A DNA stretch of 63,823 bases, filler included, from an uncultured Methanosarcinales archaeon (GCA_964398115.1; 4 parts of 4 records of this genome joined end to end with filler, not necessarily neighbours in it), one strand, 5' to 3'; counted from the whole stretch's first letter, positions 18,149 to 39,524 are shown. Numbers and translations are program-made. Notes: generated by a model from the sequence alone, not told the origin.

Positions 18149-21100
18149 TTAACTCGCCGAATTTTCCGACATTTCCGCGTTTTCTAATGGATTAGCTGGA
18201 CACTGTAACGAGCTAAATATACCTTCCAGTCTTCCTTGAATTATATTTTTCACTTGCTGCGTTTTTTGACTATATAATTGCTGCAAAACTCTTTGCCTGG
18301 TTTGTGCATCCCATAAACTCACTACTTGAGTCAGTACATCTTTAGGCATTACTTTCATCATTTCATCCATCGCTCTAGCTTTAGCGTCAGCACTTAACGA
18401 ATTTATTTCTTCATTAACTAATTGTACTATTTGATCTTCATCGAGTTGGTGAAGTTTTTCATATACTTGCTCTATCCTTTGTGAATCAACTTCAGGCATT
18501 ACTTGTTCTAACATTATTTCTTGAACTTGCACTCCATACTTGCCATCAATGACATCCCTCACTAATTTGTCTATTTGTTCTCTAGTGAGTTGCAAGTCGG
18601 TAACTAACTCTCGCATTTCCTCTTCGCCTGCTTCTGCGTTGAATTCAAGGTTGGTTTCGTGCAAATAATTTATGCGTTGATCTAAGTTGATTGATACTCT
18701 CCTACCTTTTTTCAACATTTCAGCTTTCCTTTCCACTGATAGTTCCGTCACAGTTTGTTTTGCAGCTTTCAAGATTAATTCTTGACTGGACTCGCTGAGT
18801 TCGGATACTTGTCTTGAAGTTTTCCTTACAAAGTTCTTTTTGTCTTCTAGTTTGGTCACGTTTGACAATTTATGCCTGGCTTTCCTCTTCCACTCTTCTG
18901 GTATTTCTCTATCTTGTACGAGATCTTGATACGTTTTTGACTTTTCTTCTGCTGTCCTTACGACTTGTTGTATGTTGTTTCTAAACTCTTCAGAGTTGAA
19001 TTCGTTTTCCACATCTCTTATGGCGTTGGTGACTACGTTATCACTTAATTCTTCACTTAGTCTGGTTTCTCCTACTTGCTTTGCTATTTCCGAATCGCCT
19101 ATTACTTGAATCGCTTTTGCTGGATTACCACTTTCTACGGCGTTGATGAAGTCGTCAGCGTTTTGAGTTATTTTAACGTAAGAATCTTTTATTTCACCTA
19201 GTCCGAGGAATTCTAACATTCTTTTCTCTATTGACACAAACTTTTCACAAGCTTGGATGGGTTCACCTCTTTGCCCGTTGCTGTCCATAGGGATGAGTGT
19301 CAAGCAGTAACTAGGGCTGGTCATTTGAGCTAGTTGGTTCATGAATTCGTTCCCACAAGTGTTCATAATGAAGCTTGTCTTATCTTGAATCTTTCGTGTT
19401 GGTATCTTTCTTGCGAAGTGCACGTTCCCATTTTCTCCTATGACTTTCATGTATTCACACGCTTTATCTTTTATCTCGGTCAATTTTTGTATCATGTCGA
19501 CTTCACTTTCTAGGTTTTGTTCTGCCCTTTGCACGTCTGATTGTAGATCGTTGAGGTATTGGTTGTCGACGCTAACTACTGAGTTTTCACTGCCTACATC
19601 TATGTCTCCTGCTGGGGTGTTTAGGCTGCACTGTACTTGGAATGCGGAAATGTCTGAAGTTTCTGGAACGTCTAGTTGGACTTGTAAAGCTGCTTTTTGC
19701 TGGTTGGGTAACATTTCCAGAATGCTTGGAGGAATTCCTAGTGCTAGGCTTAAGCCTTGAGTCACTACTTGTTCTTGTACTTGGCTGAACAAGTCTTGGT
19801 TGGATTTTTCGACTTGTTCCATGTTTACATTCACGTCTTCTTGTTTTGGTTTTTCATCTCTTAGTGTGAGTGCGAATTTAGAACGGATTGGTTTCTTCAC
19901 AGTGTTTCCATTTTCTTGTATTTTGTATTCTTTTCTTGACTCTGCGCATACGAGGAAGGTTCTCCTGTTCTCTGGGCATAACCCGATAGCTTGTTGGTTT
20001 TGTCCTTGTCCTGAAATCCCTCCTGCTACTTTTGTCAGTACTAATTTGTCTTTATTATTTTCTGGCTTGTATAAGTTCAAACTTTTATAGTCTCCAGATA
20101 GTTGTGAAGATTCTATTTCTATGTTGTTCCCCTCTTTCGTTATAGTTATGGAATCTAGTTTTTCGTTTGTATCGGCGGGTTGTGGATTATAATATGTGGT
20201 GTTTGTTTCCAGGTCGTACACTCTTTTGACGGGTTCTTCCATCTTTATCTTTTGACCTTCTAGTTTTATCTCGTAGTTTTTCGGATCATCTATTTCTGTC
20301 AAGTTCAATCTACAAACGCATCTGGCTCGATCGTTGGCAAGGCAGGTTTCAAATTCTTCCACTACTTTATAGAAGAAGTCGTATTGTTCGCATTGGCTAA
20401 CGTCATTGTAGAGTTTATAGGAATTATTTTCTGAATTGTATTGTCTTATTTTTTCTTTCAAGGTGGCTTGGGGGCTTTCATACGTTTCTTCCCAGGTGTT
20501 TCTCGCCCAGGTTATAACGCTTTGCATGTGTTTGGTAATGCCAGGTAGTTCCAAATCTGTTTTTACTTTGAAGTGTGGCATGACGGTATAGTTTGAACCT
20601 TTATTGAAGTATCCTTGATTAAGTTGTCCTTGTTCGCTTGTTCCTACGCCGGAGCATTGGCTTATACTTTCTTTGTCATAGCTTATTGTGTCTACAGTGC
20701 CTCCTCCGTATAGGTTTAGACAGTTATTAGCGGTAGGACTTGTTTGAGATTGTAAACTCTCGAGTTGGTTTTCGCTGTAAAAGCAGAAAGGATTCCTTCC
20801 TGTTTGTTGGTTTTGGCTTGTGTAAATTCCGAAGTGTAAGTGTTCTGCGCTGGACGCTCCGGTGTTACCCATCGTTCCGATTTGTTGTTCCTTATTTACT
20901 TTGTCTCCAACGTCTACGTTGACTGTTTCAAGGTGAGCGTATCTTGTGTGAAGGCCGTTGTCGTGTTTTATATACACGTAGTTGCCGTATCCGTTGCATT
21001 TTCTTTCACAATCTGGGTTGGGTTGGCATCCTTTTGGACCGCAGTTGTACAAGCTGCATGTTTGTTGTTTGCAAACATCTATCACTTCTCCACTTGCTAT

Positions 21101-21841
21101 GGACTTGATTGTTTCTCCACCTCGGTTTCCGAAGTCGATGCCGTCGTGGAATCCGTCTCCGTGTTGTCTTTGTCCGTAGCAGGAAGTAACGGCTGAGTCT
21201 TGTGCTGTTACTGGCAGAGCTAGGTCTTCATCTTGTATTGAAATGTTTTGTACCGTTGGACCTGCTATTCTTGGTCGTCCCACACCTTTTTGAACTTGTA
21301 CTGTTATGGGTTTTTGAGCTGTGCCTTCTATCACGTATTCTTCTCCTTTCTTTTTCACTTTAAATTCGTAGTTGTTTAAAGGTATGTTTACAGCGGGGTC
21401 GGGATATTTTGCTAGGTAGGATTTCATGTCTGTCTGTAAGAATTTGCTGAACGTGTTGAATTCTGTTTGTGGTTCGCAGAATTGTTGTTGTGTGGACCAT
21501 CTGTTGTAAACAAATTTTGAACAATTAGTTTGTTTCACGGAGAACACGTTGTCGGCGCCGTCAATTCCTTCTTGCCATTCACCTCCTTGGTCGTTGTATT
21601 CTTCAAAGCTTTGACGCATCGAATACTTCGCTGCTTGGTCAATATAGGTTCTTGCACTTTCTGCTTTTTGAATGGTTTCTAACAACGCGGTTTGTGCGTC
21701 TCCAATCTTTCTTTCCTCTCCTTGACTGTTTTTAATGTTGAGTTCTCCTTTCACTGCCATGTAGGAAAATATTAGTAGTGAGATGAGGGTGATTAGTACT
21801 ATGAGGCTGTACACGTATCCTTTCTTACTTTCAATTTTCAT
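18149..21841 (-). CDS. 1230-aa pilin-like-signal protein with an M23 peptidoglycan endopeptidase domain
   Basis: KKG|YVYSLIVLITLISLL; HDGIDF, GYGNYVYIKH, TRYAHL, IGTMGNTGAS..EHLHF. Confidence 0.9.
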   Translation of the reverse strand: MKIESKKGYVYSLIVLITLISLLIFSYMAVKGELNIKNSQGEERKIGDAQTALLETIQKAESARTYIDQAAKYSMRQSFEEYNDQGGEWQEGIDGADNVFSVKQTNCSKFVYNRWSTQQQFCEPQTEFNTFSKFLQTDMKSYLAKYPDPAVNIPLNNYEFKVKKKGEEYVIEGTAQKPITVQVQKGVGRPRIAGPTVQNISIQDEDLALPVTAQDSAVTSCYGQRQHGDGFHDGIDFGNRGGETIKSIASGEVIDVCKQQTCSLYNCGPKGCQPNPDCERKCNGYGNYVYIKHDNGLHTRYAHLETVNVDVGDKVNKEQQIGTMGNTGASSAEHLHFGIYTSQNQQTGRNPFCFYSENQLESLQSQTSPTANNCLNLYGGGTVDTISYDKESISQCSGVGTSEQGQLNQGYFNKGSNYTVMPHFKVKTDLELPGITKHMQSVITWARNTWEETYESPQATLKEKIRQYNSENNSYKLYNDVSQCEQYDFFYKVVEEFETCLANDRARCVCRLNLTEIDDPKNYEIKLEGQKIKMEEPVKRVYDLETNTTYYNPQPADTNEKLDSITITKEGNNIEIESSQLSGDYKSLNLYKPENNKDKLVLTKVAGGISGQGQNQQAIGLCPENRRTFLVCAESRKEYKIQENGNTVKKPIRSKFALTLRDEKPKQEDVNVNMEQVEKSNQDLFSQVQEQVVTQGLSLALGIPPSILEMLPNQQKAALQVQLDVPETSDISAFQVQCSLNTPAGDIDVGSENSVVSVDNQYLNDLQSDVQRAEQNLESEVDMIQKLTEIKDKACEYMKVIGENGNVHFARKIPTRKIQDKTSFIMNTCGNEFMNQLAQMTSPSYCLTLIPMDSNGQRGEPIQACEKFVSIEKRMLEFLGLGEIKDSYVKITQNADDFINAVESGNPAKAIQVIGDSEIAKQVGETRLSEELSDNVVTNAIRDVENEFNSEEFRNNIQQVVRTAEEKSKTYQDLVQDREIPEEWKRKARHKLSNVTKLEDKKNFVRKTSRQVSELSESSQELILKAAKQTVTELSVERKAEMLKKGRRVSINLDQRINYLHETNLEFNAEAGEEEMRELVTDLQLTREQIDKLVRDVIDGKYGVQVQEIMLEQVMPEVDSQRIEQVYEKLHQLDEDQIVQLVNEEINSLSADAKARAMDEMMKVMPKDVLTQVVSLWDAQTRQRVLQQLYSQKTQQVKNIIQGRLEGIFSSLQCPANPLENAEMSENSAS

Positions 21842-22379
21842 CTTGTTTCCATCCTTTAATGTCCATTTGGATAGGCTTTTTCTCGTTTGGGACGGGGAGG
21901 TATATCCGTCCGGTAAATCGGTGGTCTTTTCCGGTTATCAAATCTCTCATAGTTTTTTGTATTGTACCCATTAGTGTAGGGGAAGGTTGTTCTAAATCCC
22001 CGATGGTTAGGCTTTCCCCTGCCGGATATTTTATTCTTATCCCATATGGTAGTTTTGACCTTTCGTATTCAGGATGTATTTCTCGCATTTCCATTTTTAT
22101 TTCATGTTTTAAAGTTTCTCTAGCTTCTGAATCTTCGTAGCTATAAACTACCAGGTCTGCTATCGTGTCTACTTCGGAATTTCCTGACAATTGTACATTG
22201 GTTGGTCTTTTCAAAAGGTTGTTTAAGAAATGTTCTGAGGTGGTGGCTGTGAATCTTGCTTTGGTTATTTCATTTTTTTGTGCGCTTTCCCAGTTTATGA
22301 GTGTGAGGAATCCTGCGAATACTAGGAGGTATAGGACGAACATTATCACGGTTCCTATCACGCTTTGTCCCTTGTTCAT
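21831..22379 (-). CDS. Pilin-like (class III signal) protein
   Basis: MNKG|QSVIGTVIMFVLYLLV. Confidence 0.75.
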   Translation of the reverse strand: MNKGQSVIGTVIMFVLYLLVFAGFLTLINWESAQKNEITKARFTATTSEHFLNNLLKRPTNVQLSGNSEVDTIADLVVYSYEDSEARETLKHEIKMEMREIHPEYERSKLPYGIRIKYPAGESLTIGDLEQPSPTLMGTIQKTMRDLITGKDHRFTGRIYLPVPNEKKPIQMDIKGWKQDEN

Positions 22380-22867
22380 TCTGGCACCGCCACTTTCACA
22401 TCTAGTATTCCTTTGCTAGTGTTTCCGTCTTTCATTATATTCACGGGAAGCCTTTTATGATAGAGTTCTGGACTTCCTATGCCTACGAGTCCTGCTTGTT
22501 GTAATGGTCTCCAAGTTTCGTATTGTTCTTTGTTATAGTAGATTGTTTGTTCATCGCCGTTTTTCACGTTTGTAAGTGTGACTTTTGCCGCCCCTACCAA
22601 GTTTGACTCGTAGTTTATCGCACCGTCTAGGGTTGAAGTGTTGAACTTCTCCCAAGATATAGTTCCTGGGCGTGTTCGTCCCATGTCGTCAACATAGCTT
22701 ATAGTGCTTGGAGAGTATGCAATCCTTGCAAATATCATTTCTCCTCTCACTCTTGCATCTTCGAATTCGTTTCCTGAAAAGTTTTGTATTATTATCAGTA
22801 TGGATATGAATCCTAGCAGGGTTAAGGTAACGATTTTAAACCAAGTTTTGAGTGTAAAATCTACCAT
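22376..22867 (-). CDS. Single-TM protein of the pilin-like cluster
   Basis: N-terminal hydrophobic helix without a basic KKG leader; translationally coupled. Confidence 0.65.
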   Translation of the reverse strand: MVDFTLKTWFKIVTLTLLGFISILIIIQNFSGNEFEDARVRGEMIFARIAYSPSTISYVDDMGRTRPGTISWEKFNTSTLDGAINYESNLVGAAKVTLTNVKNGDEQTIYYNKEQYETWRPLQQAGLVGIGSPELYHKRLPVNIMKDGNTSKGILDVKVAVPE

Positions 22868-23284
22868 TTAGGATCCCTCTTTGAAAAGCCAAGAAGTTTG
22901 GTTTTTCACAATAGTTATGTTATCAGATATCATTCCTGACTTGATATAGTCTAGGTTTGGGTCTGAAGCGTAGGGTTGTTCTATCCCAGCTCTTTGCTGT
23001 ACTGGCTCGTCGCTCTCATCGTAGAAAGTGATTCTATTCTTTGTCGCGTTGAACTCTATCGCATATTTACTTCTTATCTCGTAAGGAAAGTTTACGTTTC
23101 CTGGAGCCGCTAATACTCCGTCTGCCAGTAAAGAAATGTCTTTAGCGTAGTATTTTCTATGAAGGTTTGAGTCACCCACCACGTTGTTTACCATCATGTA
23201 TCCGAAGATTACTATAGTAGCGGCGAGGACTATTTCTACAGCAACTTCAAGAGTTTGATTTTCACCTTTTCTGTAGAGAGACAT
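22868..23284 (-). CDS. Pilin-like (class III signal) protein
   Basis: RKG|ENQTLEVAVEIVLAATIVI. Confidence 0.75.
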   Translation of the reverse strand: MSLYRKGENQTLEVAVEIVLAATIVIFGYMMVNNVVGDSNLHRKYYAKDISLLADGVLAAPGNVNFPYEIRSKYAIEFNATKNRITFYDESDEPVQQRAGIEQPYASDPNLDYIKSGMISDNITIVKNQTSWLFKEGS

Positions 23285-23325
23285 GACGAATTCAATGTCG
23301 ATTTCAGTTTATATATCTGACGCTA

Positions 23326-24402
23326 TTATTGGCAGAAGTATTTGGATGTCCCTGCCGATGTGAGTTCTGCTTTTACGTTGCATCCGAGTTGGCAAGGATC
23401 CATTGCGCAATGGGATCCTTCTACTTTCGTACAGTCTTTCGCAGTTCCTGTAATAGTGGTGCCCCCGCAATAGTCGTTGCATTCATCTATTTGGGAACAG
23501 TCTATCTGTCTGTATTCAGAAGTTGTCCCTGTAACCTTGCAATATCCGGTTCTGTATGCTTTTCCGTCGCAAGCACATAATTCGGTTATTTTTCCGTCTT
23601 CACATTTTTCAATTTGGATTGCTTCGCACCGGTTCGTTGTGGAATCTTTTCGGCAGTAGTTGGTGATGACACCTTTGATTACTTCATCCGTGTAGCTATT
23701 TTGACATTCTTCATCACTGTTTTGAGAACACTTTTGTAGATGTTTATATCTGTATTTTGTGTGTGGTCCTGAATCTGTTATTAGCACGTGTTGGCGTCCG
23801 TTTTCTGTAATTTTTTCTATGTAGAATTCGTTAAGTTTTCCTATATTGTCTCCGTAAATTACAAAATGTGTTTTTTTGGATTTCATATTATCTGGCAATT
23901 CTTCATAAGCTTGTATATTTACGTTTTTGCTTTCCGCTTTTTTGTCTGTTAAAGGGGGGATTTTGTGTGCTCCCATGAATTCAAAGTTTTGATTGAAATC
24001 CCAGCAGTTGACTATTTCTCCATCGCCGTCGCCTATGTGGAAGTTGTATAGACACATGCAGGTTTGTGTATTGCACCTGTCGGGTTTTCTTACTGTCTTT
24101 ACTTCATCGTCTATATTTACTCTTACTCTTTCTCTCGCTCCGTTGTCAAATCCGGCTAGGGAGAATTTTTCTGGTATGAACAAGCTGTCTGTGGTGTAAC
24201 TCATTCCTTCTTTGCTTAGCAAGTTGTTTATTTTGTCCTTCATCTGTATTGCTTGTTCTTTTGCTGCTTCAGCTTCTGTCGTGTCTCCTGTCACTATGTC
24301 CCACGCTTTGAGTGTTAATGGAAATGCGAATAGGAGAACTACGCCTAGAAACACTATTTTTATAATGTTTTCGAGAGAGAGTAAATCTCCTTTTCTACTC
24401 AT
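23326..24402 (-). CDS. Pilin-like protein with Cys-rich C-terminal region
   Basis: MSRKG|DLLSLENIIKIVFLGVV; many C-terminal Cys. Confidence 0.75.
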   Translation of the reverse strand: MSRKGDLLSLENIIKIVFLGVVLLFAFPLTLKAWDIVTGDTTEAEAAKEQAIQMKDKINNLLSKEGMSYTTDSLFIPEKFSLAGFDNGARERVRVNIDDEVKTVRKPDRCNTQTCMCLYNFHIGDGDGEIVNCWDFNQNFEFMGAHKIPPLTDKKAESKNVNIQAYEELPDNMKSKKTHFVIYGDNIGKLNEFYIEKITENGRQHVLITDSGPHTKYRYKHLQKCSQNSDEECQNSYTDEVIKGVITNYCRKDSTTNRCEAIQIEKCEDGKITELCACDGKAYRTGYCKVTGTTSEYRQIDCSQIDECNDYCGGTTITGTAKDCTKVEGSHCAMDPCQLGCNVKAELTSAGTSKYFCQ

Positions 24403-24412
24403 ATTCTTTATA

Positions 24413-25081
24413 CTATGCCGTATTTATACAGATTGATCCTTCATCATATTCGAAATTGGAGAATGAATCGTCTTGACCGGAAAGCCATCCTTTGTTAACG
24501 TGGATATCTTCAACATCTCCATCATTTTTTGAGTGGAATATTTCTATGATACCGTCTCTGCCTCCACACATATCTAGAGGTATTACTTTGCTATGTATGA
24601 TTTCGGAATTTGTTCTGTAGAATTGTATTCGTGCTATGCTATTGTCCCCTTGCTTCGTAAATTCTATTACTAGATTGGTATCTTCAGTCATTAGATTTAG
24701 TGTTTTTTGTGTTGCTTCTTCGCAGAGTCCTTGTTCTCCTTCATTGTTCTTGCAGGAAATCAGTAGTTGTATCATTTCAGAAAAGGATTGTGTGTATTGA
24801 GCTTCTTTTTTCGCCTTCTCAGTTTGAGGTATACAGCAATTAAGTTTTTCTTCTCTGCATTCTCCTCCTGTAACTTCAGTAGTTACGTATCCTTCATCAC
24901 AGGTTTCTTTACAAACTCCATTTCCGGCTGGTCCGCCGCATGCTTTACCTGCGTTACTAAGCTCTTTACCGAAGAGTTCAATAGATTGTATGCAACATTC
25001 AAGCATGACAACCATTAGTACTCCAACGATTACTACGGTTCCTAATGTTCCGAGTAAGGTTAGACCTCTTTTGTCCATCAT
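24413..25081 (-). CDS. Pilin-like protein with defensin-like Cys motif
   Basis: DKRG|LTLLGTLGTVVIV; C-x8-C-x3-C-x13-C-x6-CC. Confidence 0.75.
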   Translation of the reverse strand: MMDKRGLTLLGTLGTVVIVGVLMVVMLECCIQSIELFGKELSNAGKACGGPAGNGVCKETCDEGYVTTEVTGGECREEKLNCCIPQTEKAKKEAQYTQSFSEMIQLLISCKNNEGEQGLCEEATQKTLNLMTEDTNLVIEFTKQGDNSIARIQFYRTNSEIIHSKVIPLDMCGGRDGIIEIFHSKNDGDVEDIHVNKGWLSGQDDSFSNFEYDEGSICINTA

Positions 25082-25117
25082 GACTTTCTTTAGCTTTTTC
25101 TTCTTATTTAATACTTA

Positions 25118-25849
25118 CTAACTTTCAAATTCGCAATTTTGTCCTTGGACATGCTCTACATAGCAGATGTCGGCGTTTTCTCCACATCCTAAGCCATTAT
25201 AGGCTCTAAGTGCTCTGTTCCAACCTTCGTATTGTTTGTAATGCTGTCTGTAGTCGGTGTAGTCGTAGTTGTCTATTTGTTTGTAATTGTCCGCGTCACA
25301 GTGACTGTTGATTTTGCTGTGATATTCGCTTTCACTCCAACTAGTTGCTTGTTCGTGTTTATCTTTTAATATTGCCAGGCCGCATTTGATGTTTTGTGTT
25401 TTATTCTTTAAGTCTGCGTCTGGGCAGATTGATTCTGCCGTGTCAGGATTTATTTGCATTATCCCGTATGACAATCCGCTACTTACCACGTTTCCTTCTG
25501 AATTGCAGTGCCTCATATTGCTTTCTTGCTGTGCAAGGTCTCGGACTAAAGGCCATGGAAGTTGTCTCGTAGGGGGGAGATCGCTGTTGAATTCTTCAGT
25601 TAGGGTTTGTAATTTTTGTTGGTTTTCGTCTTGAGTGTCGTCTCTATATGCTTGGGGGCACGGCCATGTTTCTCCTGGTTGGTTTTCTTTGTTGGTAACT
25701 CCTAGCAAAGTGTCTTTAAAACTCGCAACTAGTCCTTTTCCGGTATCTCTTGTAGGGATAACAACTGATTTTAGTACTATCACTGTTATAGCTGCTACTA
25801 TGAAGAGTGTGAGTATCGTACGCCAGGTTATTTGTCCTTTTTTCATCAT
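25118..25849 (-). CDS. Pilin-like-signal protein with soluble lytic transglycosylase (SLT/GH23-like) domain
   Basis: Likely start MMKKG|QITW at 25849; SLT motifs QQESN (catalytic Glu), YGIMQI, NIKCG..IL, ALRAYNG. Confidence 0.88.
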   Translation of the reverse strand: MMKKGQITWRTILTLFIVAAITVIVLKSVVIPTRDTGKGLVASFKDTLLGVTNKENQPGETWPCPQAYRDDTQDENQQKLQTLTEEFNSDLPPTRQLPWPLVRDLAQQESNMRHCNSEGNVVSSGLSYGIMQINPDTAESICPDADLKNKTQNIKCGLAILKDKHEQATSWSESEYHSKINSHCDADNYKQIDNYDYTDYRQHYKQYEGWNRALRAYNGLGCGENADICYVEHVQGQNCEFES

Positions 25850-25980
25850 CCGAAAATCATTTCTAGTGTTGAAGTTCCTGTTTCTGACCAGACTTGTTGT
25901 AGTGTAAGCCATACGACGAGTACGAGTGTGGCTATTATGATTGCTATGAGGACCTGTTTGCTTATTCCTTTTTTATGCAT
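25846..25980 (-). CDS. 44-aa minimal pilin (not in ORF track)
   Basis: MHKKG|ISKQVLIAIIIATLVLVVWLTLQQVWSETGTSTLEMIFG; AGGAG SD; stop overlaps the SLT start. Confidence 0.8.
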   Translation of the reverse strand: MHKKGISKQVLIAIIIATLVLVVWLTLQQVWSETGTSTLEMIFG

Positions 25981-25998
25981 GATTATTTTTCTCCTTTA

Positions 25999-26916
25999 CT
26001 ATGTTTTTATAGGTATTGGTTCTCTTTCACAATCTAGGTTTTGCAAGGTTTCATTGTTGTATTCTGCGAGGATTGTTTGTGATACGTGTTCAGGAGTTGT
26101 TTCAGAGCTTATTTTGAACAGTCCTGCTTGCACTCCAACCCATGTTATCCCTGCAGCTGTTATTCCTGTTGCTCCAACTGCCCATCCAGCGGTTACAATG
26201 CCTAAGCTGTATCCTATAAATGCTGTTTTTCCTCCTGCTAAGACTCCTGCTCCTATCCCAATAGCGTTTCCTAACTTTCCGGTTTTTGTATTACCGCTTA
26301 TTTGATCTAAGAATTGTTGTATTTCATCTCTTCCTTTCGAATAGACGAACAGGGTGGCGTAGTCTTTGTCCGTGTTTAAACCCCAATTTTTAACATTTGA
26401 TGCTTCATCTAACTTTTGTATTTGCTTGTTTAAACTTTCCAGGGTTGAACTCCCTACGGTTGAGTATCCGCTTAAGTATTCCAGATAGGTCATTTCTTTC
26501 CGGGGTATTTCGTTTTCTGCCATGTATTTGTAAAGGCCGGTTATTTCTTTTTCTCGTCCTTCAAAGCTTATTATGGAGCACGTGTGGCAGTAAGTGGCTT
26601 CTTCTTGGAATAGGTTTTCGTCTCCTTCTGAAAAGCTGTACCAGCATTTCCTCATTTCTTCTGCTAGTTTTTCTTTCACGTTGTTGGATGTTTGTATGGT
26701 TACTTGCCTAGTTGGGCATTGTATTTCACTTGCAAATGTTCTTCCACTCCACATCTTTTGTGCGGCGTGTTTTTCTGTTTCTCCTCTGCACTTTCTAACT
26801 TCTAAACTTTCTTGCGTGTTGAACATTACGGGCTTGAGGATTAAGATTAGTATTATCAAGGCGGCAGTGGTTATAACGGCGGATGTTAACAATTTTTGTC
26901 CTTTATTCGAGTACAT
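25999..26916 (-). CDS. Pilin-like protein with glycine-zipper hydrophobic hairpin
   Basis: NKG|QKLL; LAEEMRKCW...C..C; GIGAGVLAGG...GWAVGATGITAAG. Confidence 0.75.
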   Translation of the reverse strand: MYSNKGQKLLTSAVITTAALIILILILKPVMFNTQESLEVRKCRGETEKHAAQKMWSGRTFASEIQCPTRQVTIQTSNNVKEKLAEEMRKCWYSFSEGDENLFQEEATYCHTCSIISFEGREKEITGLYKYMAENEIPRKEMTYLEYLSGYSTVGSSTLESLNKQIQKLDEASNVKNWGLNTDKDYATLFVYSKGRDEIQQFLDQISGNTKTGKLGNAIGIGAGVLAGGKTAFIGYSLGIVTAGWAVGATGITAAGITWVGVQAGLFKISSETTPEHVSQTILAEYNNETLQNLDCEREPIPIKT

Positions 26917-27568
26917 GGTCGCACCTTAACTGGTTGAACTTGTCTTGTGTCATCAACATTACTGAACTATCGGCGTTGTTGAAGATAACGTCGGACCATG
27001 GTATTGTCATTCTGTCTTCGCTGAATGCTTGGTACATGACGTAATATGTTCTAGTCGTGTCTAGGTTGTTTTCAATTAAAGCGGTGTAGTTTTCGACATT
27101 AGGATAGAGGAAACTGGTGTATTTTTCTTCTCTATTCCGTATGGTTTCTTCTGATAGGAATTGTTTGAAGTTTGGGATATTTCCTGTTCTGACGTTGTTA
27201 TCAAATTTTATTTCGGCGCATTGGAAGCATACTGTGTCTCCTACTCCTACTAGTTCTTTATCGAAAGGATCTAGTTCTCCTTGTTGGAATATTTCCCAGC
27301 ATTGTCTCATGTTTTCGGCTATTCTCTTCTTGGCTTTGTCTTGATCTATTTCTTCTTGTGTGATGGTCATTTCTGCTTTGTCGCATGTGAATTCTAATAT
27401 GTTTTCGCTTGCTACTGCTTTTTGTGCTGATAGTTTGCACATGTCAAATTTAAGTTCATCTTTAGAGCTGGCTATTAATTTGTCTGTAGTTAATGTTATT
27501 GCTATCACGGCTCCTATCACGAGTGCTATCGCTATTAGTTTTTCTATAGCTATGCCTTTTTTGTTCAT
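26903..27568 (-). CDS. Pilin-like protein, paralog of 25999-26916
   Basis: MNKKG|IAIEKLIAIALV; IAENMRQCW.F..G...F.....CFQC..I.F. Confidence 0.78.
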   Translation of the reverse strand: MNKKGIAIEKLIAIALVIGAVIAITLTTDKLIASSKDELKFDMCKLSAQKAVASENILEFTCDKAEMTITQEEIDQDKAKKRIAENMRQCWEIFQQGELDPFDKELVGVGDTVCFQCAEIKFDNNVRTGNIPNFKQFLSEETIRNREEKYTSFLYPNVENYTALIENNLDTTRTYYVMYQAFSEDRMTIPWSDVIFNNADSSVMLMTQDKFNQLRCDHVLE

Positions 27569-27660
27569 AAGAATGACTCCTTGAATTGGACTATTAAGAG
27601 TATTAGAGCTATTAGGCCGAAGCTGAATAGTATGAGCATTGCTAGTTTCTTTAGGGACAT
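27565..27660 (-). CDS. 31-aa single-TM peptide (not in ORF track)
   Basis: MSLKKLAMLILFSFGLIALILLIVQFKESFL; ATGA overlap with the next gene. Confidence 0.5.
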   Translation of the reverse strand: MSLKKLAMLILFSFGLIALILLIVQFKESFL

Positions 27661-27711
27661 CAGTTCGTTATTAGGCAGAAGATTGTATTAAAACATTTCC
27701 CTCAAATCTTT

Positions 27712-29094
27712 TTAGTCTGAGTTTTGCAATTCTTCTTCCAGTCTTTGTTTTGCTTGTTCGAAGAATCCTTGTTTTGCTTCTTCTGTTCCAACGTAAGCTT
27801 GGAATTCTGGTTCGTTCTCATTCCCTGCTCGGTCTCTAGCGTAGATACAAACATTGGCGTATACAACGCCGTCAACGTTTATCTCGTCATCACTCGATCT
27901 GGTATAGCCAGTTGTAGGACATTTGCCTTGTTTAGCAGTTCTTGAGATGAAGTCGAGTATTGATTGTTCTAAATTTTCGTCACTTGTTATGTCAGATTCC
28001 GTTTGCTCATCTCTAACACTGTAGTAGTATTCGTCGCACCCGCTTCCTCTATCTTCACAAGTTATTGTAGTGCCGTCTAATCCTAGACTGTGTGGTGGTA
28101 CTGAGTCAACCCTCACATTTTTAGTGGGGAAGTATAGTGTTTCTCCTCCTCTCATGTTTACTTCGATGCATAATGGCTGGTTTACGTATCCAGTGCCTAT
28201 TCTCTGCCTGACCGTACTTCCATTAATGAAGAATCCTACTTGGTCGTCTAGAAATACTTTGCTCGTTTCTATTTCACTTCCTGTAAATAATTGTTCGTTG
28301 CAGTTGGAGAATTGTCCTTGCATCATGAATCTGTAGTCTGCGCTTTCACAATCTCCAACGTTGCAATTGAGTCGGAAACTTTCTTCTTGAGTCCATTCTC
28401 CTTGTAGTCCTACTACTGAAACAGGCCGGGTTAGGTCTATTGGATAAGTGGCTTTTGCAACTCTTTGCCCGTCGTTGAGAACTTCTACATGAACTTGAAT
28501 ATTTTGTTTTAAGTTGCTTGACGTGAATTGGATGTTTGACAACCCAGATCCTGATTTGTCTCCTCTTGATTGATCGTCTGCAATGTTAGAACAAGGATCG
28601 CTTATCTCGGCTTTAGGATTGTCCTCGTTTTGTCTTACATAGAGTATTTGATCCGTTGACTCATCGGTTATGTAAATCTGGCAAGTTTGTCCTTCTTCAA
28701 GGATTTTACTGTCTATGTAGGTGTGGAAAGTGTATTCTCTCCCCGTAAATAGAGGTATTCTTTCTTCTGCGCTGTATAGTTTCCGTCTGTCTTCTACTTG
28801 TAGTTGTATGGCGTTGCTGCCAGGGACTACCTTGTTGTCTGAGAGGTGGCTTTTAATCTCGTCGCTTGTGCAGCATACTCCGGTGTCGCATGCTCCGGCT
28901 GCTTGGAAGAGTTGTTGTTCGTTTTCTCCGCAGCTTTGTTTACAGACTCCTTCTCTCCCGCTGCATGTGTTAATACTTTCTGCAAATCCTGAAAGGGTTT
29001 CTTGTCCTATGCTTAGTAGGATCCATACGAGTGCTAGTATGAGTATGACACTTCCTACTACTTTTAATGCACTTAGCTCTCCTTTCGTGTTCAT
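27712..29094 (-). CDS. Pilin-like protein with defensin-like motif and Ig-like domains
   Basis: TKG|ELSALKVVGSVILIL; CSGREGVCKQSC...CDTGVCC; VDSVPP...C.D.GSGC...ARDRAGN. Confidence 0.78.
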   Translation of the reverse strand: MNTKGELSALKVVGSVILILALVWILLSIGQETLSGFAESINTCSGREGVCKQSCGENEQQLFQAAGACDTGVCCTSDEIKSHLSDNKVVPGSNAIQLQVEDRRKLYSAEERIPLFTGREYTFHTYIDSKILEEGQTCQIYITDESTDQILYVRQNEDNPKAEISDPCSNIADDQSRGDKSGSGLSNIQFTSSNLKQNIQVHVEVLNDGQRVAKATYPIDLTRPVSVVGLQGEWTQEESFRLNCNVGDCESADYRFMMQGQFSNCNEQLFTGSEIETSKVFLDDQVGFFINGSTVRQRIGTGYVNQPLCIEVNMRGGETLYFPTKNVRVDSVPPHSLGLDGTTITCEDRGSGCDEYYYSVRDEQTESDITSDENLEQSILDFISRTAKQGKCPTTGYTRSSDDEINVDGVVYANVCIYARDRAGNENEPEFQAYVGTEEAKQGFFEQAKQRLEEELQNSD

Positions 29095-29095
29095 G

Positions 29096-29353
29096 TTATT
29101 CTCCTATGTCTTGAGGTGCGCAGCAAATTTCTCCTTCACCGCATCCTGTCGACTGATAGAAAGTGGTTCCTTCTGGACAGCTGTCGGCTGCACAGGTGAA
29201 TCCTTCTCCTCTTTCTTCACATGCGTTTGTAGATTCTCTGAAGTCTCCAATCTTGCCGGTGACGAGCATTATCAGAACTACTAGAATGATTAGGGCTAAT
29301 GCTGCCATCACTATTGTTTGCAAGCTCATCTCTATGCCTTTCTTGCTTTTCAT
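29096..29353 (-). CDS. Small archaeal pilin with defensin-like head
   Basis: KKG|IEMSLQTIVMAALALIILVVL; six-Cys motif ending CC. Confidence 0.85.
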   Translation of the reverse strand: MKSKKGIEMSLQTIVMAALALIILVVLIMLVTGKIGDFRESTNACEERGEGFTCAADSCPEGTTFYQSTGCGEGEICCAPQDIGE

Positions 29354-29628
29354 GATGATTCTTCTTGTTCAATGGGTATGCAACATTTTTGGTCGTCTTC
29401 AGGGCATGCTCGGTAGCTGTCTTCCGCGTATCCGCTGGGGCATTGTTCGTCTGTGTCTAAGTTCATGCATTGCCCGCCAGGCACTTTTTGGCATTCGTTG
29501 GTCTGTCCGAGAATGTTGCCTTGTCTCAAGACTAGTGTGGTTAGAATTACGAGTATTAATAGTGCGATTGCTGCTATTATTATGACGTTCATGCTTAGGC
29601 CTTGGCCTTTTTTCATTAAACTTTTCAC
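29350..29628 (-). CDS. Small archaeal pilin with defensin-like head
   Basis: KKG|QGLSMNVIIIAAIALLILVIL; six-Cys motif ending CC. Confidence 0.85.
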   Translation of the reverse strand: MKSLMKKGQGLSMNVIIIAAIALLILVILTTLVLRQGNILGQTNECQKVPGGQCMNLDTDEQCPSGYAEDSYRACPEDDQKCCIPIEQEESS

Positions 29629-29659
29629 CTCTAGAGTAATATCTTTTCGGTCTTTTCTA

Positions 29660-29673
29660 TTATTTAAATGTTG
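29660..29673 (-). promoter_or_regulatory. Putative TATA promoter of pilin 29350-29628
   Basis: CAACATTTAAATAA, identical to 29940-29953. Confidence 0.6.
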
Positions 29674-29916
29674 CTATGACTGTTCTCCAACCGGAATGCA
29701 GCATCTCTGGTCTTCTTCAGGACAAGTCGCTTTTGTGTGTTCAACCATGCCATCTCCGCAAGGATTTTCTTGACAGGTCCCGCCTGAAACTGTAGAACAA
29801 GATCTTGTGTCACTTGGAACGTTTGATATGAAAACCGCAGATAGTACTACTAGAACCAAGAGTGCGAGAGCTGCTATGACGATGGTTTTGAGGCTTAATC
29901 CTTGACCTTTTCTCAT
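29674..29916 (-). CDS. Small archaeal pilin with defensin-like head
   Basis: MRKG|QGLSLKTIVIAALALLVLVVL; C-x7-C-x4-C-x11-C-x6-CC. Confidence 0.85.
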   Translation of the reverse strand: MRKGQGLSLKTIVIAALALLVLVVLSAVFISNVPSDTRSCSTVSGGTCQENPCGDGMVEHTKATCPEEDQRCCIPVGEQS

Positions 29917-29939
29917 CTTGGTTTATTCTCTTAATCTTC

Positions 29940-29953
29940 TTATTTAAATGTTG
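29940..29953 (-). promoter_or_regulatory. Putative TATA promoter of pilin 29674-29916
   Basis: CAACATTTAAATAA ending about 24 nt before the ATG. Confidence 0.6.
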
Positions 29954-30463
29954 TTATGTCTTGCATATTTCCATGGTGACAGTTGCTTCGCTTTGCATTG
30001 GGTAGAGTGGGAGTACTTGCCTACCTGGGCTTTCTTTTTCTTTTTCACGATCACAGCCTTGGTTGGTAATGTTCCAGAGTTCTTCTCCGTCTTGATTTAT
30101 GTGGTAGTAGTAGCTCACTCCCCATTTGTCTAGTGTTTTCCGTAGTATTTGGTGGGCGGTTTGGTTTACGTAGTAACAGCTTTGATGTCCGTTGCAGATT
30201 ATGTCTCCGCCGCTTGCTTCTTCTAAGTTTCCGTTTCGGATGCAGTCTTTGACTAACGCGCTGTATTGTTGTCCGCAAGCTGGTATGTGGGTGTTGGTAA
30301 TTACTTGTACGAAGCTTTTGCCCATGTTGGCCTCGCCGAACGTTTCGCTCGAACTTGTTTGCTCTTCTGAGTTGAAAGTGGTGGTTAAGGTGAATGCTAA
30401 GACTAGTCCTGCTATGACTAGTATGAGCATTAATCCTACGATTTCGATTTGTCCTTTTTTCAT
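29954..30463 (-). CDS. Pilin-like (class III signal) protein
   Basis: MKKG|QIEIVGLMLILVIAGL. Confidence 0.8.
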   Translation of the reverse strand: MKKGQIEIVGLMLILVIAGLVLAFTLTTTFNSEEQTSSSETFGEANMGKSFVQVITNTHIPACGQQYSALVKDCIRNGNLEEASGGDIICNGHQSCYYVNQTAHQILRKTLDKWGVSYYYHINQDGEELWNITNQGCDREKEKESPGRQVLPLYPMQSEATVTMEICKT

Positions 30464-30945
30464 GAATGCTTCACCATGGTGAGGTATCCGAACGTGTTTG
30501 TTTTATTTATTGAGTTGTAGATGTAGACTGGCATTCGTATTGGGATTTCACTGCTAGTGTTGGCTGTGTGGTTGTAAATCACCCATTGTTTTTCTGTTGG
30601 GTAGACTTGGTTTACTTTGATCGTGGCAGATCCGTATTCTTCTCGGAAGAAATTGTATATGTCGCTGTTGGGGTTGGCGTTTCGTATACTTTGATTGGCT
30701 ATGTCTAGGCGGTGTTGGTCTAAGCAGTAGGTGTTGGTTTGTGGTGAATAGCCGCAGCTTATCTCTGGTGTGGTAGCGGCTTTTTGTGCTGTGTCGACCG
30801 CGCTTAGGCTTTCGAAAGTTCTGCCTTTTTCTCGTATTTGTTCTCCTGTGAACATTCCATATCCTACTAAGCCGGCTATTAGGATTATTATCACGATTAT
30901 TATGACCATGATGAGTTCTCCGGCTTTAATCATCGCTTTTTTCAT
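30460..30945 (-). CDS. Pilin-like (class III signal) protein
   Basis: MKKA|MIKAGELIMVIIIVIIIL. Confidence 0.78.
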   Translation of the reverse strand: MKKAMIKAGELIMVIIIVIIILIAGLVGYGMFTGEQIREKGRTFESLSAVDTAQKAATTPEISCGYSPQTNTYCLDQHRLDIANQSIRNANPNSDIYNFFREEYGSATIKVNQVYPTEKQWVIYNHTANTSSEIPIRMPVYIYNSINKTNTFGYLTMVKHS

Positions 30946-32018
30946 AGTGTTGGACAGTTCCTCCCTTTCTTCAAACTTTGTTGTAAGCTTTTTACTTTCT
31001 GAACTTCTGCTGCGATGTCTTCTTCTCTTCCTGGCCTTGCACTATTGTTTATGTTCCGGTATACTTGTTCTAGTTCTACTAGCATGTTTAAGCATTCACT
31101 GCATTGTGTGGGGTAGTCATCTACTGGGGGGTTTTTACACTCCGGGCTTGTGTGTTTTGCTTCTAAATCGTTTCTTATGGCTTTTAGTCTTTGAATTTCT
31201 AAGTCTGCTCTTTGTCTTAGTCTAGTGTATGCTTTAGCTCGGTTACATCTGTATTGTTCTACGTTTTCGCTGAATACAGCTCCGTACATCATTGCTTGTC
31301 CGACGTATCCTAGCATGTCGGTTTGTTCTAACGCGGTTTCGGTCATTTGGTAGAAGCCTACTCTTCCGTACATGTTTGGTCTTGGTTTGATGTTCACGGC
31401 GGATATGTCTCCGGAGACGGCTAGGTCTCCTTGAAGGTAGTTTAAGTCAGTTGCTGATTGGTTGAAGAATATGTATCGGTATTTGTCGGGGCCTTGTCTG
31501 CTGAAACTTTCAACGTCATCTTGGCTTATTGCAGCTCTTGTGAACCCGCTTGGTATTTCATCTATATATTTTTGCCAGAGTCCTTCGTTATCTTTTACTA
31601 TTATGAAGACTGTGTCGGGATCGGTTATGTATAGGAATCTGTCTATCCTGTTGGCTAATGTCCAGTCTAGCGTCCAGGTGTAGAAGGTGGTGTCTTCTAG
31701 CGCGTTTGGTGTGTAAATGGGTTGGTATCGTTTGCTAGTGGTTGAGGGTGCGCCTTGTAGTGTTAGTTCGCTCGTGGCGGGTCTTTCACACCTGTATTTT
31801 ATACTTGCTTGTGAGGTTTCTATTCTTTCGAATTTGTTTCCTGTGTTCGCCACGGTTTGGAGTTGGTTGTTGAAATATTGGAGTACGGTGGCTTGAGTTT
31901 CTGTATCTTGTTGCTGTGTTAGGTCTTGGGCGAATCCTGTTATGAATAGGAATACGGTTATTCCTGCTATGGCTGCAAATATCCATGTTATGTTTATGGA
32001 GATTTGTCCGGTTTTCAT
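30942..32018 (-). CDS. Pilin-like (class III signal) protein
   Basis: MKTG|QISINITWIFAAIAGITVFLF. Confidence 0.75.
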   Translation of the reverse strand: MKTGQISINITWIFAAIAGITVFLFITGFAQDLTQQQDTETQATVLQYFNNQLQTVANTGNKFERIETSQASIKYRCERPATSELTLQGAPSTTSKRYQPIYTPNALEDTTFYTWTLDWTLANRIDRFLYITDPDTVFIIVKDNEGLWQKYIDEIPSGFTRAAISQDDVESFSRQGPDKYRYIFFNQSATDLNYLQGDLAVSGDISAVNIKPRPNMYGRVGFYQMTETALEQTDMLGYVGQAMMYGAVFSENVEQYRCNRAKAYTRLRQRADLEIQRLKAIRNDLEAKHTSPECKNPPVDDYPTQCSECLNMLVELEQVYRNINNSARPGREEDIAAEVQKVKSLQQSLKKGRNCPTL

Positions 32019-32518
32019 CCTTCTACCAACGTTTTTTGTCCTCTTCCTTTGAATGTTACTTCTACTACGCCACCCTGTGCTTGGAGGCAGAGTGCTTCAG
32101 TACTTCCTGAAAGTTGTACTTTGTTAGAAGAGGCTACGGCTTCTGTGAATTCTCCTATTAAGAAAATGTTTTGTTTTGACGTGTTAGCTGATTTTAACAC
32201 GTTTAAATCGTTTTGTCCTAAGTTCATATCTGGCTTGGTTTCTATATTGTCTGTTTCTATTCCTCCTTGTATGCTGTTGTTGGCAAAGCAGATTGCTCTG
32301 TAATCGCATGGAAGATTTAAGGTTTCTTTGTGGACGCTTCCGTAGTCGTCGTATTTGTCTAGCAGGCTTGGGATTTCTTTTATGAAGTTTGCTTTTTGTG
32401 CCTCACAGGATTGTGTTAGTAGTCCTTGTATTCCTTGGTATCCTAGTATGAGTACCGTTACTGCTATTAGTATGAATAGGATGGTTGTCATTGATTCTTT
32501 AATTTGAGCTTTCTTCAT
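32015..32518 (-). CDS. Pilin-like (class III signal) protein
   Basis: MKKA|QIKESMTTILFILIAV. Confidence 0.78.
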   Translation of the reverse strand: MKKAQIKESMTTILFILIAVTVLILGYQGIQGLLTQSCEAQKANFIKEIPSLLDKYDDYGSVHKETLNLPCDYRAICFANNSIQGGIETDNIETKPDMNLGQNDLNVLKSANTSKQNIFLIGEFTEAVASSNKVQLSGSTEALCLQAQGGVVEVTFKGRGQKTLVEG

Positions 32519-34928: not shown

Positions 34929-37900
34929 TTTCTAAGGTGTAGGTTGGATCGTCTGGTGCTACGCCGTCGTATAGTAGTTGTAGTGTGGTTTCTATATTGT
35001 TGCCTGCCCAGTCTGTTGCTGTTATTGTCACATCGTTCATAGTTTCGTTGTTATCTCCTGCTATGTTGAAGGGCATGGTGAATTGTCCGTCTCCTCTTAT
35101 GCAGTTGTTTCCTCTTCCAGTACATGTTCCTACGCATCTTTCTTCATTGTTTCTCTCGTTCAATGCGCAGATTTGGGTTGCGTCTACAGAGATAGTTCCA
35201 GTTATCCTTCCAGTAGTTGCGCCGGTGACTTTCAATTCTCGTTCTGGGTCGAAGTATTCTGGTGGTGCTATAATTCTTGCTTCTTCAAACGCTGGGTTAG
35301 TCGTGTCTACCGTCACGGTGAAGTTTTGGATTTCTTCTGTATTGCCTCCCTGATCTTCGCTGTAGTATCTAACCATTTCTGTACCGTCAGTGTTGAAGGT
35401 CATTCGTGTTCTGTTCGCTCCTGTCGCGGTGGGGTTGCATCCTTCTCCTTTACAAGTGTAGAGTTGGTGGCATCCGAAGTTCCAATCTCTTTCGTTATCA
35501 TCTACTAGGTCTGAGCTTCTGTCGTTGCATTCTAGCGTTATGGTTGCGCTTTGCACTGCGCCTTCTTGCATTTCTCTGTTGAGTCCTGTAATTCTCGTCT
35601 CGGGTGGTATTTGGTCTATGACGAATCGTACGACGTCGTCGGGGTTTTGTTCTACTATCACGCTTCCGTCGTTGAGTGAGCATGCTATGTTGTACTCGTA
35701 TATGCCGGTTCCGGACACCTCGCTTGGCGCGGGGTTGGTGTGTTCTGTCGCTCCTGTGGTGCTGAACTCGTTTGTCATAGCATCGTATATGTGCGTGGTA
35801 GGGGAGTATCTGCAGGTGCCGGGACTTTCTGTTGTGGCGGACATTGTTATCTCGCTTGCTTGTGAGAAAGTGGTTCTTGGTTGGATGTTTGTGATTCTTC
35901 CATCTGATTCTACTACTAGGGATCGGCTGATGCCGTGTGAGTTTCTCGCGCCGTCGTAGCATTCTACGTTGAAGGTGTAAATTTCGGGTGGTACTTGGTA
36001 GCTTAGCGAGTATGTGTCTCCAGTGCCGCTTCCTGTGCGTGTGGTCCCTTCTCCGTTTAATTCCCAGTTGCAACTGATTGGCGTGGTTTCGTCATTGACG
36101 TTTATGTTTATGTCTAGTTGTGCGTTATCTGAAGCGGTTGACATTGTTGATGTGTAGGTTAAATCTATACTTGGCCGGTTAGTGTCGTAATTCACGGTTT
36201 CTACGTTTAACACTTCAAGGTTGTGGGCTGGGTCTTCGCTGTAGTACGTGATGTTGGTCTTACCAACTCCGGTTAGGTCTAGCAATATTTGATTTCCTGC
36301 TTGTGTTTGTGGATAGCACGTCCCGCGGGAGAAGCAGTAGTAAGTTTTGATATTTTCTGCGTTGTATGCGTTGTCTCTAACTCCATAGTCTATCCCTTCA
36401 TCCCATCCTATCACTCCGTCACTGTTCAAAAGAAGTGTGGTAGTTGGGTTTTCAAAATCGGTCAGGCATTTATCGTTATTATCTCCACAATCTCCTCTTT
36501 CTACACTTCCGGTTTCGGTTTGTAGGTTGTCTGCGTTTTTGACACATCCTATACCGCCAGATCTGTATTCGCATTTTCCTAGTCCTAATGCGTCGTTGCT
36601 ACGTTGTTCTACTATGTGGTTTCCTCCCACGCGTGTTCGGTCGTCGTATTGTGCGTTTACTTCAACACTTTGTCCTCCGGTGCATGCTGTTCTGTCATCT
36701 CCGTAGTCTTTGCATGTTGCTGATCCTTCACATACGCAGGTGTTATCTTCTGCTTGGAAGTAGCAGTTTCCTAAGCTTTCGCAGGTGTCTTGTGTGCATT
36801 CTTCATCTCCACTTCCGCATAGGCTTCCTAGATTTTCTGCGTTTTCATTAACGCATTTTCCTATTCCTAGGTTTTGACTGGCTGATTCTCCATATGGGGT
36901 TTTCCATTCACATGGTAGGTTTGTCCCGCATGGGTCTCCTAGACAGGTTTGTCTGCTTTCGTAATCCATGCATCCTCTTACGGGACAACTCTTGTACGGG
37001 TCGACGACTGTGCTACTGTTGTCTCGGTAGCATAGTCTGTCTTGTTGTAGTTGGTAACAGGTTAGGTCGGTTGAAGATCCTTCGTATTCTACTTCTCTGG
37101 ATGGGTCAGGGTACATTCCGTATGCTTGGTTGCATTGGTCGCAGTCGGCGGGTGTTTTGCATGATGCTCCTTGTGAGGTTTCTATGCAAACGCTGGAGTC
37201 GCATGAATTTCGGCTTTGGACTGCTCCGTTTGGCCCGCACTGTACTATGTCGTTATCGTGGCAGATGGTTTCTCCTTCTCTTCCGTTGCATAGTATGGAG
37301 CTTACTGTGATTGTTTGTTCTGAACTCGTTACTTCGGTTTGGTCTGGGAACACTGCTGTTATATTGTATGCGTATGTGGTGTCGTATTCTACAGTGGTGT
37401 CTTCGAAGTATGTGGCGGTGGTGTTTCCTACTATTTCGGTTGTTGTTTCACTTTGATTTCTTCTATGTATATAGTATTCTACTCTTGCTTGTTCACATCC
37501 CGGGTTTAAGTTCCATTCTAGTCGTATTATGCCGTCTCCTACTTCTTCTGGTTGGTCTAGTATTAGTTCTTGCGTATCTTCTGCTGCGGTGCATATTTGT
37601 TCGTCAGTAGGTGTTGGCTCGGTTGGCCCGGTTCCTCCTGTCTGGTCTGTTTCTCGTTGGACGTCGCTACATATTTGTGTGCAGTCCATATTTGAGTCTA
37701 TTGGTTCATCTTGATATTCTGTTACGAATGTGTAGGAGTCGCTACAGCTTAGGTTGGCTTGTGGTCTTACTTGTCCTCCTACGCTGATGTTGTCTTCTAG
37801 GTCGCAGCAACACCCGGTCGCGCATTCTGGCACGTTATTACAAGAGTCTTCTATGACGTCTCCTTGGCAAGAACTTTCTTGGTCTGGTGTTATGCCGGTG

Positions 37901-38028: not shown

Positions 38029-38058
38029 TTTTTGGACTATAATATTATATAAATGTTT

Positions 38059-39513: not shown

Positions 39514-39524
39514 AGGTCACCTCT

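Follow-up and report, generated by a model that had tools for sequence, protein, structure and literature searches.

A predicted, divergent lytic transglycosylase with a pilin-type leader in a pilin-like operon of a Woesearchaeota-type archaeon

Why would an archaeon in whose genome no wall-building genes are found carry an enzyme of the kind that cuts bacterial peptidoglycan, and why would that enzyme begin like a pilin? The question was raised by a gene at 25118..25849 on the minus strand (stop codon at 25118-25120) of a 63.8-kb stretch of DNA (the window, meaning the whole stretch analyzed) from an assembly deposited as an uncultured Methanosarcinales archaeon (GCA_964398115.1). The gene encodes a protein of 243 amino acids (aa) composed of a leader, a helix, a linker, and an SLT domain, as assigned from its open reading frame (ORF), its translation, Pfam SLT, and the public gene call. 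It is predicted to be a real, intact, and divergent GH23/SLT enzyme. The reading that we favor, and hold to be reasonably probable, is that of an exported lytic transglycosylase with a pilin-type leader that would cut the wall of bacteria together with an M23 peptidase encoded in the same operon.

The lysozyme-like SLT/GH23 catalytic domain spans residues 60-243 (25121..25672, minus strand). Pfam SLT (PF01464) matched residues 95-171 at E = 1.4e-10 (41.2 bits; cut-off 21.3), and no other SLT match was found in the genome; a reading of this DNA made earlier from the sequence alone (hereafter the sequence-only reading) had proposed this HMMER search as a check, and the domain scored above the cut-off. 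The three motifs named in that reading were all located in the gene on the minus strand, namely Q108-E109-S110 (25520-25528), G129-IMQ-I133 (25451-25465), and A216-YN-G219 (25193-25204). These correspond to the catalytic Glu in an ES pair and to the motifs known in the lytic transglycosylase family as GLMQ-type and AYNxG-type. Glu109 (codon 25523..25525, minus strand), the predicted catalytic acid/base, aligned with the ES of MltC and Slt70. When the protein was aligned with 32 short homologues (33 rows), this position was Glu in 28/28 homologues covering the column, with 5 of the 33 rows gapped there; Q132 was present in 32 of 33 rows, and Y217 and G219 in all 33. Invariant residues were C142, C184, Y207, R215, Y217, G219, and V231, and the same alignment gave a subfamily C-terminal tail of ALRAYNGxGC..AD..YVE. 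Eight Cys are present in the predicted mature protein.

A single-sequence phmmer search of the protein against PDB gave no match, and a profile of the 33 rows was needed. The profile matched an MltC-type structure (9vi7, 5.8e-13), MltC (4c5f, 3.9e-9), Slt70 (1.4e-7), MltE (6.8e-7), and EtgA (1.3e-5), with goose-type lysozymes next at about 1e-4, and the ES of the subfamily aligned to the ES of 9vi7, 4c5f, and Slt70 (1sly). The AlphaFold2 (AF2) model (predicted local distance difference test score, pLDDT, 86; predicted template modeling score 0.74) showed a helix at residues 9-29 and, beyond a stretch of low confidence (31-57), a domain modeled with confidence (60-243). The Foldseek matches were nearly all to MltF, Slt, MltC, MltE, and g-type lysozymes, although weak (best E = 2.7e-3). 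The sequence-only reading had staked its proposal on a lysozyme-like fold being predicted, and such an alpha-helical fold was recovered by both profile and model. Membership of the SLT/GH23 fold family is well supported by this agreement of predictions. A weak match to NFACT_N (E = 0.0067), which reached 15.7 bits where the cut-off is 31, was dismissed as compositional.

The domain shares with the bacterial family-1 lytic transglycosylases (Slt70, MltC, and MltE of E. coli; MltF and Slt of P. aeruginosa; LtgA of Neisseria) the lysozyme-like fold, the single catalytic Glu in ES, and the GLMQ- and AYNxG-type motifs. It differs from them as an archaeal, separate subfamily with invariant Cys142 and Cys184, with 18-25% identity to lytic transglycosylases in structural alignment (VIA-align), and with a pilin-type leader at the N-terminus instead of a lipobox or Sec signal. 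An exhaustive phmmer search of 1.84 billion representative proteins returned 86 at E <= 1e-3, the query included, and 13 at E <= 1e-10, while a word-index homologue search recovered the SLT protein alone. Because so few proteins match in the exhaustive search, the domain is classed on its sequence as an SLT subfamily of its own, rare and divergent; the subfamily motif RxYNG was carried by 72 of the 85 nearest library proteins.

How the protein begins depends on the choice of start codon. An ORF is present at 25118..25912 (minus strand), and an in-frame ATG at 25849 yields the 243-aa protein, which starts MMKKGQITWRTILTLFIVAAITVIVL. From the sequence, the start at 25849 appears better than that at 25912, because a pilin-like mini-ORF of 44 aa, helix only, occupies 25846..25980 on the same strand. 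The mini-ORF has a GGAG 10 nt ahead of its ATG, begins MHKKG|ISKQ (N-terminus MHKKG|ISKQVLIAIIIATLVLVVW), and ends in a TGA (25848-25846) that overlaps the ATG at 25849 as ATGA. The 243-aa form is also that of the public gene call, and in SLT homologues a short N-region directly precedes the helix. The start at 25849 was further favored because the genome of a relative in the same family has a 52-aa, leader-bearing, pilin-like ORF in the same place; no counterpart was found at that position in a genome of the same genus. The sequence-only reading was thus right to regard the start at 25912 as too early, and its "hidden mini-pilin" is real as an ORF.

From 25849, the protein opens with a class III (prepilin-type) leader, MMKKG (25835..25849, minus strand), with a putative cut after Gly5 and before Gln6, which is the KKG|Q that the sequence-only reading had pointed out. 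Leader and helix read MMKKG|QITWRTILTLFIVAAITVIVL and passed the regular expression (regex) by which class III leaders were called (K/R, then G/A, then a hydrophobic helix). In the AF2 model, the hydrophobic helix at residues 9-29 (25763..25825, minus strand) resembles pilin alpha-1 and could serve as a membrane or fiber anchor. It is followed by a low-confidence linker at residues 30-59 (25673..25762, minus strand) without a pilin head. Mean pLDDT in 10-residue blocks over residues 1-30 was 68, 91, and 77, and pLDDT was below 50 at residues 31-47 and 50-53 of the linker. Since there is no 6-Cys head and helix, linker, and enzyme follow one another directly, the protein is better described as a bindosome-type fusion, with leader and helix alone, than as a full modular pilin. 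The earlier description as "pilin-fused" therefore stood for the leader and the hydrophobic helix, and failed for the rest, which is a disordered linker with none of the 6-Cys head seen in the small pilins of the operon.

The SLT gene lies on contig C9, which is complete in the window (11645-43603), within a row of 23 co-directional, tightly packed ORFs (18149..42784, minus strand; largest gap 143 nt) in which 13 junctions overlap or abut. A K/R-G/A site followed by a hydrophobic helix was present in 17 of the 23, seven of which, the SLT protein included, have G|Q; the KG|Q leader type is common to the SLT protein and six other ORFs of the row. The strict regex was passed by 15 of these 17 leader ORFs, and genome-wide by 81 ORFs, 17 of them on C9 (two of these lying outside the row or spurious). 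Among ORFs with an N-terminal helix, the regex site occurred in 14 of 17 in the row and in 26 of 270 elsewhere in the genome (82% versus 10%, an approximately eightfold enrichment), and the associated Fisher value (5.6e-11, post hoc) is descriptive only, because the row was picked after it had been seen.

Three small genes in the row (29096..29916, minus strand; 85, 92, and 80 aa), two of which have the KG|Q leader type, encode proteins with leader, helix, and 6-Cys head that look like structural pilins in sequence and model. They share the pattern KKGQGLS, hydrophobic helix, 6-Cys head, with a Cys mini-head of C..GG.C...C...CP...CC, and the AF2 model showed a helix at residues 9-32 and a small beta domain (pLDDT 77). 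The model had no PDB match at E <= 0.001, the best being beta-defensin-like mini-domains at a non-significant E of 0.5-2. Neither these three nor the mini-ORF matched a Pfam family at E <= 0.01, and NCBIfam held no family for the three or for the SLT protein. A similar Cys-rich head pattern after a helix was seen in the neighbors at 24413-25081 and 27712-29094 (minus strand). One Cys-head neighbor also had a non-significant Pfam match to Defensin_beta_2 (E = 0.2).

The machinery that a class III leader calls for (A24 peptidase, assembly ATPase, and platform) was found in the genome. There is one A24 prepilin peptidase (Peptidase_A24, 52 bits, contig C3), together with four T2SSE ATPase matches above the cut-off on contigs C27, C6, C12, and C4, and four T2SSF platform matches at two of the ATPase loci, on C6 and C27. 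The M23 partner on which the sequence-only reading had relied is also real. Its gene (18149..21841, minus strand) is the last of the row, adjoining RPA, and encodes 1230 aa that start with the leader MKIESKKG|Y and include Peptidase_M23 at residues 231-344 (Pfam E = 4.5e-25), with the motifs HDGID (HxxxD) and HLH (HxH) visible; this was the only M23 match in the genome.

The profile found relatives of the SLT protein in the same-genus (1.3e-54) and same-family (2.8e-59) genomes. A search of 41 genomes (the source, the same-genus and same-family genomes, and 38 more of the order) gave an SLT match in 20 at E <= 1e-3, a level loose enough to let in generic SLTs as well. In a phylum-wide sample of 301 good genomes, 32 had a match at E <= 1e-15, and each of these belonged to the same order or class. 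A 9-row alignment query yielded 44 named loci, where the single-protein query gave none, and 43 of the 44 were labeled archaeal. Two architectures were seen among them, the one being giant SLT proteins of 800-3200 aa and the other leader-bearing SLT proteins in rows with at least 5 other leader ORFs. Where the row is kept, the gene order runs pilins, o169, o161, o358b, o305, SLT, a big M23-type protein, and RPA, and an RPA homologue stood beside the row in at least 11 loci. The same-genus locus (L019) has this gene order at 54% G+C, compared with about 40% for the locus in the window. The 12 loci with an SLT ORF longer than 1500 aa held no other pilin/RPA row gene except for one weak o484 match. 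In the protein library, the leader regex was passed by 0 of 12 giants, whose N-termini appeared Sec-type by eye, and by 25 of 73 shorter proteins. Among the named loci, many more-distant homologues that lie in pilin rows carry clear K/R-G/A sites.

In five of the loci, the position of the M23 gene is taken by a multi-enzyme "stalk" protein of about 1300 aa with a leader and an SLT domain at about residues 600-840 (L042:8189-12031, L050:7832-11845, L058:7697-11713, L062:7733-11869, and L066:8021-11914). Pfam found M23 and SLT in L042, M23 in L062, and Amidase_2 in L050 and L058, with no match in L066. The M23 protein of the window is homologous to these fusions over its first 340-460 residues (1e-20, 8e-22) and has no SLT module. 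A tree of SLT domains (97 rows, 138 columns, no bacterial outgroup), in which 45 of 91 inner branches were open, placed the fused domains in a starred clade of their own (Shimodaira-Hasegawa-like approximate likelihood ratio test 99) and grouped the window domain weakly (84, drawn open) with small stand-alone ones. A recent fission of an M23+SLT fusion was considered and rejected as not supported, because the five fused domains form a clade apart from the window domain. The sequence-only reading had expected phylogeny to reveal a donor lineage; none was identified in this poorly resolved tree, most of the nearest library proteins share the subfamily motif, and the named loci are archaeal-labeled with one exception.

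The absence of an own wall, which the sequence-only reading had taken for granted, agreed with the genome searches. No match to Mur_ligase_M, PBP Transpeptidase, or SEDS was found in the 91%-complete genome, and bacterial controls were positive; Amidase_2 likewise had no match in the source genome, again with positive bacterial controls. Mur ligases are also needed for pseudomurein. As the three wall-synthesis markers were not found, a foreign wall is the simplest reading of the target. SLT enzymes, M23 peptidases, and N-acetylmuramic acid (MurNAc)-L-Ala amidases each attack a different bond, and bacterial murein is the only polymer in which the three bonds are found together; relatives carry SLT with M23 or with the amidase on one protein. 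This repeated SLT/M23/amidase combination on a single stalk is, at the level of sequence, the best argument for a murein substrate. It also fits the idea, put forward in the sequence-only reading, that glycan cutting by the SLT enzyme and peptide cutting by M23 complement each other. The SLT protein, with M23, would thus most likely be aimed at bacterial murein.

From the observed fold, motifs, operon, and genome machinery, we infer how the protein would be processed and displayed, what it would cut, and for what purpose. The precursor would insert in the membrane by its N-terminal helix, and the MMKKG leader would most likely be removed by the single A24 peptidase, as for the 16 other leader proteins. 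The pilin-type helix might then anchor the mature enzyme, either to the membrane or within or on a fiber of the three small pilins, which would be assembled by the products of one of the two ATPase/platform loci on other contigs. The linker of about 30 residues would hold the GH23 domain outward, where Glu109 would cut the bond between MurNAc and N-acetylglucosamine in bacterial peptidoglycan and the M23 peptidase of the operon would cut the peptide links. Together, the two enzymes may breach or digest the cell wall of a bacterium touched by the archaeon, or wall debris, for contact or for food.

Several observations weigh against this reading. The protein has no globular pilin head and passes from the helix through a disordered stretch to the SLT domain; the same-genus orthologue (starting MMAQANNG|AIPII) and the same-family orthologue (starting MIVEELRWMIVPLV) have no K/R-G site; and the leader regex was passed by 18 of the 44 named-locus homologues and by 25 of the 85 library homologues. 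None of the ATPase or platform genes lies on the operon contig, C9. At 91% completeness, the wall genes count as not found, not as absent. Because the two closest orthologues lack K/R-G, class III processing of the SLT protein is put as likely only. The missing head, the two orthologues, and the lack of assembly genes in the operon would suit a plain signal-anchored membrane enzyme, as would the giants of the same subfamily with their Sec-type N-termini. In such an enzyme, KKG would be the positive-inside N-region of an uncleaved type II anchor (a Sec signal in some relatives), and the protein would sit on the cell surface without pilin processing or a link to a fiber and still cut foreign peptidoglycan. 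Against this stand the KG|Q leader type, which six further ORFs of the operon also have (two of the small pilins among them), the enrichment of the leader motif in the row, and the clear sites of the more-distant homologues in pilin rows, and we regard a signal anchor as rather unlikely.

Two further explanations concern the target rather than the anchor. The substrate could be a non-murein glycan, such as chitin, an archaeal host surface glycan, or pseudomurein, and the enzyme would then serve contact with a non-bacterial partner or polysaccharide feeding. We consider this improbable, as the sequence profiles favored murein lytic transglycosylases, the operon partner is an M23 peptidase, and relatives fuse SLT with M23 or with a MurNAc-L-Ala amidase; the bonds cut by these two families are found in murein only. 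A housekeeping enzyme that makes space for a pilus by opening the cell's own envelope, as VirB1 and EtgA do in bacterial secretion systems, would account for an SLT gene within a pilin operon and for EtgA among the profile matches. Such a role seems very improbable, since no Mur ligase, PBP, or SEDS was found and no own murein or pseudomurein is evident, and since the subfamily also occurs on giants away from the pilin/RPA row.

The reading of an exported, pilin-leadered SLT enzyme aimed at bacterial walls has partial parallels in the literature. SLT domains in DPANN archaea have already been published. Castelle et al. 2021 (PMC8204110), citing Rinke 2013 and Castelle 2015, described extracellular proteins of Pacearchaeota and Woesearchaeota of up to 3000 aa with a murein-transglycosylase domain (fam00969), and Vigneron et al. 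2022 (PMC9723730) reported GH23 genes in Woesearchaeota genomes and proposed predation. Both concern, as here, an SLT domain in DPANN archaea with a suggested role in binding or degrading bacterial walls. The motif of the present subfamily was found on giants of 1500-3200 aa in Woesearchaeota-type records and in the protein library, so that the domain is shared and the architecture is not. Compared by description only, the fam00969 proteins reach about 3000 aa with one transglycosylase domain, a size and architecture that the 243-aa protein, with its class III-type leader and pilin operon, does not have.

The N-terminus has parallels of its own. Raynaud et al. 2021 (PMC8179133) described PilB and PilC of Streptococcus sanguinis as modular type IV pilins, with a peptidase module among the predicted architectures. 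These likewise place a functional module behind a pilin-type N-terminus for type IV filament machinery, but they are bacterial and their pilin module is complete, globular head included, where the SLT protein has leader and helix only; transglycosylase does not occur in the available text of that paper. Archaeal non-pilin binding proteins with class III signals, for which the type IV filament base is encoded elsewhere (PMC13705601), are a further parallel, as a class III signal and a hydrophobic helix are their only pilin features as well. In those bindosome-type proteins, the cargo is sugar binding for uptake, whereas here it is a predicted wall-cutting enzyme; the words peptidoglycan, transglycosylase, M23, and hydrolase have no occurrence in the text of that source as available. 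Zoocin-A-like M23 hydrolases of Halobacteriales that kill bacteria, with M23 homologues in four Nanoarchaeia genomes (PMC12352652), are another case of murein-free archaea with bacterial-wall hydrolases aimed at bacteria. Unlike the SLT protein, those hydrolases combine M23 catalytic and peptidoglycan-binding domains, and the available text contains neither "pilin" nor "class III" and mentions transglycosylase only as a pointer to Vigneron et al. In the literature search, no title or abstract opening linked archaeal pilin-type leaders with peptidoglycan hydrolases, with the limit that the supplements of PMC8204110 and PMC13705601 might list such proteins. The combination of pilin leader and operon setting was thus not found in print. 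Protein Atlas leads (0.87) to SLT clusters, two of them viral, were not used.

Another ORF of the row, of 305 aa (25999-26916, minus strand), combines the leader MYSNKG|Q with a C-terminal stretch that is hydrophobic and rich in glycine (GNAIGIGAGVLAGG...GITAAGITWVGVQAGL). It had no Pfam family above its cut-off, and it gave the strongest tblastn matches in the loci of relatives after RPA among the row ORFs (up to 3e-46). Two large Cys-rich ORFs with Sec-type signals, at 34918-38028 (56 Cys in 1036 aa) and 39525-42368 (46 Cys in 947 aa), both on the minus strand, matched no Pfam family. On another contig of the window, genes for a DsbD-type membrane protein (5093-6058, plus strand) and a DsbA/thioredoxin-like protein (9303-10217, plus strand) were present, as would suit a cell producing many surface proteins rich in disulfides.

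The window consists of four contigs of one assembly (the end of C2, part of C5, the whole of C9, and part of C16) linked by N runs at 4435-4534, 11545-11644, and 43604-43703. Because these are contig joins, genes to the left of 11645 or to the right of 43603 are not neighbors of the SLT gene. The assembly comprises 1.0 Mb in 67 contigs and is 91% complete and 0.6% contaminated. The genome is archaeal, as indicated by RadA (13279-14286) and RPA (16833-18092) on C9 and by an NFACT gene on another contig of the window. Of the 44 loci with SLT relatives, the records were labeled Woesearchaeota (23), Nanoarchaeota (7), Nanoarchaeia (1), Pacearchaeota (1), Aenigmatarchaeota (1), "archaeon" or "uncultured archaeon" (5), "Methanosarcinales" (5), and Omnitrophica (1). 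Based on these labels, the source organism belongs to the Woesearchaeota-type DPANN archaea, and its genome is small. The five "Methanosarcinales" labels conflict with the others. The Omnitrophica record (L049, WOR_2 bacterium), which also holds 4 leader-type ORFs, was the only bacterial-labeled record with this SLT. It looks like an archaeal contig mis-binned with a bacterium, judging from the archaeal-type RPA homologue on it (4e-44).

A wall-cutting enzyme in a pilin-like operon suggests that this archaeon deals with bacteria. An order-wide surface operon would carry up to three murein-specific activities, against the glycan, the peptide bridge, and the MurNAc-L-Ala bond, behind pilin-type leaders, and would extend the idea of the modular pilin or bindosome from adhesins and binding proteins to lytic enzymes. 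More tentatively, and with some doubt on our part, the conserved Woesearchaeal leader row might build a pilus-like organelle for bacterial contact, a "wall drill" with exchangeable wall-cutting heads, the SLT enzyme here and M23+SLT or amidase+SLT in relatives. To our knowledge, few Woesearchaeota-type DPANN have an identified host, and every DPANN in culture lives on archaea; if the organelle is as proposed, a large DPANN order would live on bacteria and not on archaea. The operon offers a molecular handle on whether attachment to bacteria, feeding on them, or killing them is part of the life of these archaea.
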